Virus record (IMG/VR): IMGVR_UViG_2541047936_000002
Span: 1 to 21,866 of that record
Reading direction: 5' to 3' (one strand)
DNA from: a virus
Taxonomy: Duplodnaviria > Heunggongvirae > Uroviricota > Caudoviricetes
Length of the DNA: 21,866 bases
Made by a program: the position numbers. Shown here piece after piece: positions 12,001 to 15,000 of this stretch. How positions within the stretch are numbered: position 1 is the stretch's first letter; each line of letters opens with the position of its first letter.

Positions 12001-15000
12001 TCTCGGTTTTGATGACAGTCACGTTGTGACAATGCCGGAACTGTGCTGGTGGCTGGTTCGTAATAATCTGGCGGATGCCTTACCGGAAAGCGCAGCCCGT
12101 AAGGCACTGAGATTACCGAATCCTGTTGTGCCGTCTGTCACCCGGGAAAGTGACCTTGTGCCTTCGGTTCCTGCCACCAGCATCATCCAGGATAAGGCGA
12201 AAAAGGTGCTGGCGCTGAAAGTGGATCCGGAGTCGCCGGAGTCTTTTATGTTACGCCCAAAACGTCGCCGCTGGGTTAATGAAAAGTACACGCGCTGGGT
12301 TAAGACACAGCCGTGCGCATGTTGTGGAAAGCCTGCTGATGATCCCCACCACCTGATAGGCCACGGTCAGGGGGGAATGGGTACAAAAGCGCATGACCTC
12401 TTTGTGTTGCCTTTGTGCAGAAAGCATCACGACGAGCTGCATGCGGATACCGTGGCATTTGAAGAGAAGTATGGCTCCCAGCTGGAGCTGATATTTCGTT
12501 TTATCGATCGCGCGCTGGCAACTGGCGTGCTGGCCTGATTTTGTGGATAAAGTTTATGCGTGATATTCAGATGGTTCTGGATCGTTGGGGTGCATGGGCG
12601 GCGAGTGATAGTTCTGGGGTAGACTATTCGCCTATAGCTGCTGGGTTTAAAGGGCTTCTTCCCTATACAAGCAAAACACGTCAGGCTTGTTCAGATAGTG
12701 ATGCATTAATTATTGAAGGTTGTCTTGCTCGTCTAAAGCAAAAAAGACCTGAAGAACACTCGCTTCTTGTTGCCCATTACCTATACGGTATCTCTAAAAG
12801 AAAGCTCGCCAAAGCTCGTAAAAAGGATGAGAAACTAATACGCATTGAGATACAGATGGCTGAGGGTTTTGTTGAAGGCTGTCTCTCAATGCTTGATCTT
12901 TGTCTGGAAATGGACCAATAGACTACCAGAATAGAAACTGCCGCTCAGCTTTGCGGATCGGCAGTTTCTGATGGTGTAATGTTACGCGCAGATGTTTCGA
13001 GTATAGATTCCCTTCCGATTGATACCAAAATTTCGATTGTTCTTGCTTTAGCCTGCATCAATGTTGATTTTATTTCAGGACTTAAGTGGTCAGATCGTAA
13101 CTGCTTCTCAATCTCAGCCAAATCACGCTTGCATTTTGCTCTTTTGGCTGCGTCCTCTGGAGATTCGAAACCATGCCTCGAAATAAACCAATTCATGACG
13201 TAAGTTAAAGTTGCCGCAACACCCGGTACCAATGCGTAGGCTACAGTTCGCCACACGCTATTAGGGTCGGTTAAAATCGCGCTAACAAGAACACTTAGAA
13301 TTGCTCCCCAGCCACCAGTTGAAAGGGTAGCTTTTCCTGTACTTAGACCTTTAGTTTGAGAATTCATTTTCGTTTTGAATTCTCCGCAATTGCCTCTTCA
13401 ATGAGGGTTGTTAGCATTTTTCCCTTTTTACTTGGAACTTTTATTACTAGCGTCTTAGTCACTCCGGATTCTTCATCGTGATATCGGAATTCGAAGACTT
13501 TTGTAGGGAATAGTCGACGCCAAAGCAAGGCTGACGCTGAATAGCAAAAACGACTAAAGGCAGGGATGATCATTATCACCCCAATCCAGAAGATCAGTTG
13601 TGCTATCTGCATGTTCAGTGTCACTTTTGTCAAGCCTCAGCAGGGCGTTTTCGTTTTACTTTGGTTATAGCATACTTGGTTGTGGCATTTCGCGCAGTGA
13701 AAGTTTTTATAGTTTTTAGCTCAACAACAAACAAATCTTCTTTTGTAAAACTGATGATTCCATTTTGAACTTGGTGTATAAACAACTGATCTTCAAATGT
13801 AACAGCATGCTCCTCGCCTAAATAATCGATTCTCCAACCCTTTGTACCCTCGAAGTTGATCTGTACGAATCTAACATTGACTTCTTCTACAGACTCTTCT
13901 TTTTCAAGTAGTGTACCTCTAGGCAGCGGTTTGATCTCTTCAGTTTCACTTCCTTCAAGACGAACGACTTCTTCGCCTTCATCATTTAGCACCTTAAATA
14001 CTGCACCTTGTTTGCCGTCTAATGGTGCACGAACTACATTCACAAGGGCATCACGGACTTCAGGATCTGTTACTAACTTAGCCACTGAGTCATGGCAAAC
14101 AATTTCTTCCCCTTCAAGTTCAAGAACAGATTCTTCTGTTCCTGCCCGTTTTGTTACCGAAATTACTTTCTTGCTGCCCAGTTGGCGGATTAGTGATAAT
14201 GCTGGAGCTCCAATAGCAGCCCCGGCTATCCCTGTTAGGCCAATCACTTTTGCGACGTCGACGGCATGAGGAACAAGCTCCATCATCGTATAGGATACGC
14301 CGAGTGATCCCGCTTCTGCTGGATTAGTAACCATTAACTTAACGGTTTGTTGACCGTCATTAAGTCTTTTATCAGCTGCTGATATTAAATCTGCCATCGA
14401 ACCTATGGAGATGCTTAATGTTTTGGCATCAATTTTATGCTGTGCTAATTCGTTATCCTCTGCATCGTAGAAGATCTGAAAAGAAGTTGTTTTAGTCACT
14501 CTTTGCTCGCTATGTCTTGACTTTTTTCCATAAAATACCTTTTTTGGGTATAAAAAACATTATCGCGGTCCGCAAAAATTGCGTTACTGTGTTAAGAGTG
14601 GTTACTTCGCCACACAGCTTAAACCCGCCGTCGAGCGGTTTTTTTGTACCTGTAAACCTGGTGCAGTACAGTAAACACGCTGGTGGCGGTGAATACCTGT
14701 CTTTCAGCTTGCTGGCTTTTTCGACAAGAGTTATTGGTATGTCATGTCAACCAGAAGGGAAAAAGACATGCTAAAACAGCAAGATATGACAGAAACCGCC
14801 GCCGCAGTCCTTCATTTCTTACCTGCTGACAAGTGGGTAACGCCACGCATGATGACGAGAACTACAGGAGTAAGCGAAGCCCGGTGCCAGTTAATACTGA
14901 CTCAGTTAGTTCTGGCGGGTCTGGCGAAGGATAACGGCGGGTACGGGAATAAATTCAGACGCTGCCAGTAATGGCGGTTTCCTGCTGTGAAAATGGGCGG

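Follow-up and report, generated by a model that had tools for sequence, protein, structure and literature searches.

Introduction

Genes 29 and 30 of the mycobacteriophage MichelleMyBell have been reported as viral defence genes of this phage (PMC5559632). The defence resembles abortive infection in that adsorption and DNA injection still occur (PMC6426606), and the two genes cut the plating efficiency of phage Tweety by 4–5 logs, an effect that Tweety gp54 counteracts (PMC8549241). A secondary source describes gp29 as toxic and gp30 as a putative membrane protein, the mechanism being unknown (PMC11856565). Here we describe a cassette of three minus-strand genes, which we term A, B and C (positions 12945–14499), in a 21,866-nucleotide stretch of viral DNA (IMG/VR record IMGVR_UViG_2541047936_000002, positions 1 to 21,866; hereafter the window). 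The window represents an Escherichia coli lambdoid prophage, and its segment 12900–14560 is 100% identical to chromosomal sequence of O103:H2 and other strains. Profile comparisons indicate that protein A is a remote homologue of gp29 along its full length. We read the cassette as a mobile prophage anti-phage module, a three-gene proteobacterial variant of MichelleMyBell gp29/gp30, and assign this reading a probability of roughly 55%. Three genes and a Gram-negative host are what is new here; the mycobacteriophage defence system, with its mechanism unsolved, was already known.

Results and discussion

Protein A and its relationship to gp29

Gene A (13630–14499, minus strand, GTG start) encodes an acidic protein of 289 amino acids with an isoelectric point of 5.1. 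The initial annotation had presented the module as undescribed and its sequences as fitting no recognisable family. This has to be revised: families of PADLOC, PHROGs and NCBIfam all cover A, and one relative has a reported defence role. Residues 4–287 matched the PADLOC candidate defence family PDC-S42 (model PDLC05015) with an E value of 8.8e-33, a family that was also matched by all 40 sampled members of the A family. Further matches were found to phrog_3243, the function of which is unknown (E 6e-61), and to NCBIfam NF053583 ("LAPAL motif-containing putative phage structural protein"; 202.7 bits at a cut-off of 60). The eponymous LAPAL motif was seen at residues 27–31 of a distant relative (locus L022), where A of the window reads TLSIS. 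No Pfam family matched A at E values up to 1; among 40 distant relatives, 10 matched Pfam DUF7946 (PF25678) over the N-terminal 190 residues or so. A literature search for PDC-S42, the LAPAL motif, phrog_3243, NF053583 and the protein accessions returned nothing.

For the comparison with MichelleMyBell, gp31 of the cluster N mycobacteriophage Xerxes (310 amino acids) is 100% identical to the product of gene 29. The profile of the A family aligned with gp29 by hhalign at a probability of 98.4% (E 7e-15, 270 columns), and a profile made from Enterobacterales members only still reached 90% (E 1.5e-6). Direct BLASTP of A from the window against gp29 aligned the C-terminal 80 residues at 28% identity (E 1e-8). 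Since gp29 itself matched PDC-S42 (E 1.6e-16), we conclude that PDC-S42 in PADLOC and MMB_gp29_gp30 in DefenseFinder are two names for one protein family. The A protein of a distantly related trio, moreover, matched a Vibrio prophage gene to which the depositor had added the note "MMB_gp29_gp30__gp29". In MichelleMyBell, the next gene codes for gp30, a protein of 67 amino acids with two transmembrane helices (locus L083, 5392–6487).

The A family proved to be large. A search of 1.84 billion cluster representatives with the A profile recovered 1,826 at E values up to 1e-3, nearly all of them 285–320 amino acids long and matched over their full length. Closer to the window, we found 87 homologues across the Enterobacterales, every one labelled "hypothetical", while tblastn of A against 50,697 sequenced phage genomes gave no match. 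Besides the initiator methionine, only G64, W222, D237 and F240 are invariant in the wide family. The AlphaFold2 (AF2) model of A (pLDDT 82, pTM 0.73) predicts an N-terminal β/α domain, small β domains and a C-terminal barrel resembling the oligonucleotide/oligosaccharide-binding (OB) fold, with a basic tail. A hydrophobic segment rich in glycine and alanine (about residues 78–105) is poorly ordered in this model. The position of the hydrophobic peak is constant across the family; its median 19-residue Kyte–Doolittle value of 1.58 is borderline for a transmembrane helix. Foldseek searches of the PDB with the model returned no match at E up to 1e-3, and the best hit of a sequence profile search against the PDB was no lower than E 0.16. 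A fold search of BFVD gave three significant matches with low template modelling scores, among them one to a protein from Pipsqueaks, a mycobacteriophage of cluster N, and one to a DUF6575 protein. The latter domain occurs in one PD system of Vassallo et al. (PMC9519451), but the template modelling score was only 0.34 and A matched no PADLOC model of a PD system, so that we make no claim from it.

Gene layout and the membrane proteins B and C

Downstream of A follow gene B (13364–13633, minus strand) and gene C (12945–13367, minus strand, ATG start, 140 amino acids). The open reading frames lie exactly where the initial annotation had placed them, and its description of one acidic protein of 289 amino acids followed by proteins with one and two transmembrane helices was borne out. 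All three are real genes, conserved as proteins down to 37% identity for A and 14–23% for B and C. The annotated overlap of stop and start codons holds for B and C, which share a 4-nucleotide overlap (ATGA) that open reading frame calling found to be kept in 36 of 47 related loci. For A and B it holds only if B begins at TTG, which overlaps the stop codon of A (TTGA) and gives the longest reading frame of 89 amino acids. A start at the GTG of 13624 is more likely: the resulting protein of 86 amino acids matches the homologue from Tatumella at its N-terminus, and a GAGG sequence lies 10 nucleotides upstream of this codon.

B carries a single, strongly hydrophobic N-terminal helix, as do all 47 of the homologues scored. 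Two hydrophobic helices are present in C (about residues 18–34 and 41–63, the second weaker), whose C-terminal half is charged and helical; the AF2 model of C, with four helices, is of low confidence (pLDDT 58) and too poor for a fold search. A B-like reading frame of 79–95 amino acids with one transmembrane helix followed A in every trio-bearing lineage examined, and the C-like proteins of these lineages measured 117–161 amino acids with two hydrophobic helices. RefSeq/PGAP annotates A and C, and B appears as a 263-bp gap in every RefSeq genome inspected.

Neither B nor C gave a significant match in Pfam, PHROGs or NCBIfam (the few listed had E values of 0.006 or weaker), no holin or spanin family was matched in these collections, and no PADLOC model matched. 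We considered and set aside an identity of B and C as holins or other lysis proteins, since there was no family match and the lysis genes of related prophages lie downstream on the other strand. The sequences diverge to 14–23% identity and contain no invariant polar residue, which fits structural membrane roles better than enzymatic ones.

Conservation and mobility of the trio

The initial annotation had named conservation of the three genes as a unit as a check to be made, and the outcome was clear. With the A profile we recovered 53 IMG/VR loci, and the trio co-occurs in all of them as well as in other genera. Tblastn located B and C in 51 loci, and the remaining two contain the trio as judged by inspection of their open reading frames. 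In each of the 51 loci confirmed by tblastn the trio is convergent with a PF06530-type Q gene. A stricter automated test of reading frames was passed by 47 of the 53 loci; the other six failed length or regular-expression limits. The trio is rare (31 of 5,426 complete E. coli genomes). A scan of genome contigs yielded only two loci. We found it in Klebsiella and Serratia elements, in Tatumella, in an Enterobacter-like contig labelled Vagococcus and in one short metagenomic contig.

Its surroundings vary. One prophage carries the trio directly downstream of a cI-like repressor with helix-turn-helix and S24 domains, in the same orientation. One element has it in an early region near the RdgC, Dam and SSB genes and a gene for an Ltp-type lipoprotein, and in two prophages it lies just upstream of the lysis genes on the same strand. 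The trio also adjoins an integrase in an island of 37% identity (L008). In L008, between 4406 and 9014, we noted other uncharacterised membrane proteins of 204, 295, 163 and 312 amino acids beside the trio; a UmuD-like S24 peptidase and a 227-residue reading frame were present as well, and these flanking genes may be further cargo. An integrase is likewise the neighbour in Vibrio phage 10N.286.45.F8_PE001 (L082, accession PQ189332), where positions 1276–2880 encode proteins of 284, 83 and 161 amino acids. This 14.4-kb element is a tailless, PM2-like Vibrio prophage of the Vinavirales, so that the module crosses virus realms and bacterial phyla. A, B and C thus travel as a unit in phage-borne lineages.

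We had also considered that every member of the A family might have B and C partners, and this could not be upheld: distant members are either solitary or paired with a P-loop protein of 499 amino acids. The latter arrangement was found in L022 (4001–6458), where a distant A-like gene precedes the AAA_16-like P-loop protein and abuts a type III restriction–modification system. The A family may therefore include forms outside phages or with other partners.

A swap site for reversed cargo

All genes that adjoin the cassette are on the plus strand, and the antisense orientation noted initially is thereby confirmed. On the upstream side these are a DnaC-like ATP-binding protein, a DnaB-type replicative helicase, a DUF968 protein (11549–12538) and the antiterminator Q (12556–12921; Pfam PF06530, E 2e-52), which is convergent with C; on the other side follow a reading frame of 75 amino acids and a methylase. 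We compared the locus with other E. coli prophages that share the same DUF968–Q flank, including L013, L014, L015 and L016. In these relatives the site between Q and the late promoter is either empty or occupied by other cargo, always on the strand opposite to Q. The alternative cargo comprised a KAP-family NTPase that matches the PADLOC candidate PDC-S20 (E 9e-177), a DUF6731 protein together with a protein of 147 amino acids, and two hypothetical proteins of 308 and 182 amino acids. In lambdoid prophages with PF06530-type Q and DUF968 genes, the interval from Q to the late promoter is thus a swap site for reversed cargo, other defence candidates included, which is now documented, and the suggestion that the cassette sits in a cargo position at the junction of Q and the late genes was well founded. 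The trio is an autonomous accessory cassette with no core phage function.

A metagenomic contig, L018, contains DUF968 and methylase genes only distantly related to those of the window (67–70% nucleotide identity). Between other genes, among them a patatin-like gene and a reading frame of 315 amino acids, it harbours a 104-residue N-terminal remnant of an A-like gene.

Boundaries and regulatory elements

Comparison by blastn with the empty site and with sites holding other cargo delimited the whole insert to 12922–14551. Homology of the flanks ends at the stop codon of Q (about 12916–12921) and starts again at about 14552, which gives an insert of about 1.63 kb; in the empty relative L016 the flanks are just 20 bp apart. 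The GC content is 39–46% in the cassette versus 50–59% in the flanks.

An inverted repeat at 12933–12969 (arms 12933–12949 and 12953–12969) spans the stop codon of C and reaches into the 23-bp gap between C and Q. The perfect 9-bp hairpin that had been predicted on the Q side is therefore present, albeit of a different size, with 17-nucleotide arms that are 88% complementary and an outer stem of 11 perfect base pairs. Its calculated folding energy is –24 kcal/mol (z = –4.5). The repeat is probably the hairpin at which the cassette transcript ends and possibly a barrier between the convergent genes Q and C. It is not a canonical intrinsic terminator, because the U-tract of the minus-strand tail is weak and the plus strand has none, and a terminator scan of the window did not list it.

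Upstream of A lies an AT-rich leader of about 52 bp (14500–14551, minus strand) that is private to the cassette. It is followed at 14552–14646 by a block on the plus strand, CATTAnCGCGGTCCGCAAAA...GTGTTAAGAGTGG, with a stem-loop and a T7 run at 14627–14646. According to an alignment of the upstream regions, this block is common to all sampled prophage lineages, whatever the cargo, and its GCGGTCCGC dyad was scored by the scan as a terminator-like site on the minus strand. By analogy with how lambdoid phages are organised, the block can be taken as the putative late promoter (pR′) and Q-utilisation region, with a Q-binding element and a tR′-like terminator. The cassette would then lie between Q and the late promoter and outside the late transcript. 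The promoter-like region that the initial annotation had seen beyond A did not hold up: the scan listed no minus-strand σ70 site there, and the conserved sequence appears to be this late-promoter block of the phage. As flank homology restarts at about 14552, the promoter of the cassette must be located within 14500–14551 or across the junction with the shared flank.

Beyond this region the prophage in the window (15122–21866) looks deleted, and the cassette is nonetheless intact. The methylase reading frame is shortened to 239 amino acids versus about 350, and the tRNA genes of the otherwise identical O103:H2 prophage are missing. The place of the lysis and terminase genes is taken by genes for an Ail/Lom outer-membrane protein (15977–16636), an NleG type III effector (16866–17435) and a DUF4765 protein of 1128 amino acids (17613–20999, minus strand), and by an ISL3 transposase fragment (21394–21789).

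Proposed function and alternative explanations

Defence is the best-supported reading of the cassette, given that A belongs to PDC-S42 and is homologous to gp29, one of two reported defence proteins. The suggestion of a defence or exclusion module thus finds support on the side of defence. In the phage-borne loci A is always followed by genes for two small membrane proteins, positioned for translational coupling. We propose that, in the lysogen, transcription of the cassette would be driven by its private leader and would not depend on the late operon, and that A would reside on the cytoplasmic side of the inner membrane, docked to B and C through its Gly/Ala-rich segment. Under the positive-inside rule, B would adopt an N-out/C-in and C an N-in/C-in topology, so that all soluble parts would face the cytoplasm. 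Infection by a heterotypic phage may then release or activate the A–B–C complex, leading to growth arrest or membrane failure; as reported for MichelleMyBell, phage DNA would enter and no progeny would be formed. The roles could be divided in two ways. A may be a toxic effector restrained by B and C, in line with the secondary-source view of gp29, or A may be a sensor, with B and C acting as holin-like effectors.

Several observations weigh against this interpretation. Three distant A-like genes (among L077–L081) are solitary amid metabolic genes on chromosomal contigs, with no signs of mobile elements among the called neighbours, which implies that the A family overall need not be defensive. 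No sequence similarity was detected between B or C and gp30 (hhalign probability for C and gp30, 0.4%), and no catalytic motif is recognisable in A. The toxicity of gp29 is known second-hand only (PMC11856565). Upstream of A, the promoter scan found no σ70 consensus on the minus strand. Our literature search found no experiment on the cassette or on any proteobacterial homologue.

The cassette could serve addiction, as a toxin/antidote-like pair that stabilises the prophage, or play some other non-defence accessory role, for example as a membrane or stress module for the lysogen. The solitary genes amid metabolic genes would suit such a role, as would the second-hand description of gp29 as toxic with a membrane partner (PMC11856565) and the intact state of the cassette in a prophage that looks deleted. 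We nevertheless regard it as unlikely, as MichelleMyBell 29/30 protects by 4–5 logs (PMC8549241), and the cassette is rare (31 of 5,426 E. coli genomes) and is exchanged at its site with defence-candidate cargo.

Superinfection exclusion, in which A, B and C would block entry of incoming DNA at the inner membrane with the OB-like domain and basic tail of A at the injection site, appears to us slightly less likely again. Many prophage morons work in this way, HK97 gp15 and P22 SieA being morons that block DNA entry. Membrane association is predicted for A, B and C alike, the C-terminal domain of A is modelled as OB-like, and one homologous trio lies near the Ltp-type exclusion lipoprotein gene; the MichelleMyBell defence is one in which DNA is still injected. 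Most improbable, in our estimate, is a role in the phage life cycle itself, be it as a virion structural protein, as a lysis-timing module or in the control of Q through convergent transcription. It would be in keeping with the title of NF053583, with the holin-like sizes and topologies of B and C, with the two loci in which lysis genes on the trio's own strand follow it directly, and with the distance of only 23 bp from the end of C to the stop codon of Q. However, the cassette is antisense to the late operon and outside it, closely related prophages that share this Q and late promoter do not have it, and in other elements the trio adjoins repressors and integrases. No holin or virion family or fold was matched. 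A structural role of A is not supported, its gene lying outside the late operon, with no virion fold match and no tblastn match in the 50,697 phage genomes.

Implications

Reading the cassette as a relative of MichelleMyBell gp29/gp30 joins three entries that are not cross-referenced, namely PADLOC PDC-S42, DefenseFinder MMB_gp29_gp30 and the NCBIfam LAPAL "putative structural protein". In Gram-negative bacteria the phage-borne form is an operon of three genes, and annotation pipelines overlook the small membrane proteins in it. The link also brings into E. coli a system that had been known from Mycobacterium smegmatis alone, and in E. coli its mechanism, its trigger and the counter-defences against it could be worked out rapidly.

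A broader proposal is tentative, and we would sooner doubt it than rely on it: A–B–C might be the common complete form of a very widespread defence family, numbering no fewer than 1,826 clusters (50% identity) from Actinobacteria to Proteobacteria, in which an effector fold lacking a solved relative, with its conserved hydrophobic Gly/Ala-rich hairpin and two tiny membrane partners, would kill or arrest infected cells. On this proposal, the cassette from E. coli would give the gp29/gp30 mechanism its first model amenable to genetics, and the present database entries, whether for one gene or for a structural protein, would misdescribe the system.

Comparison with known systems

The initial annotation had likened the cassette to RexA/RexB of phage lambda. 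The layout is indeed that of RexA/RexB and of Sbash gp30/gp31, with a cytoplasmic protein of about 280–300 amino acids and one or more small membrane proteins encoded by a prophage; one homologous trio adjoins a cI-like repressor, as rexAB does, and an abortive-infection outcome would be expected in each case. The resemblance ends with this analogy. RexA and Sbash gp30 have the DUF4747 domain in common (PMC6426596). A, having no Pfam match, has none to DUF4747. RexB has four transmembrane helices, compared with one in B and two in C. We rejected kinship with RexAB on these grounds and because no fold match was obtained.

Among database families, A scores above the curated cut-off of NF053583 and matches phrog_3243, but the "structural" label of the former finds no support in context, strand, partners or folds. 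PDC-S42 unites A, its 40 sampled relatives and gp29 under the model PDLC05015. PADLOC lists it as a single gene, whereas in all the phage-borne lineages that we sampled it heads a conserved trio.

The closest described system is gp29/gp30 of MichelleMyBell, itself a cluster N mycobacteriophage. The E. coli cassette differs from it in having three genes instead of two, the extra one being B, whose single-helix product is encoded between A and C. A and gp29 are only about 21% identical over the whole protein and 28% identical over the C-terminal domain, and gp30 has 67 amino acids against 140 in C, which possesses a predicted cytoplasmic helical tail. MichelleMyBell 29/30 lies between the lysis genes and the integrase, whereas the E. 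coli cassette, found in a Gram-negative host, is reversed and placed between Q and the late promoter. Both systems nonetheless combine a large protein of about 290–310 amino acids, homologous throughout, with a gene for a small membrane protein directly after it; gp30 has two transmembrane helices and C, its possible counterpart, two hydrophobic ones, and both systems occupy accessory regions of temperate phages.

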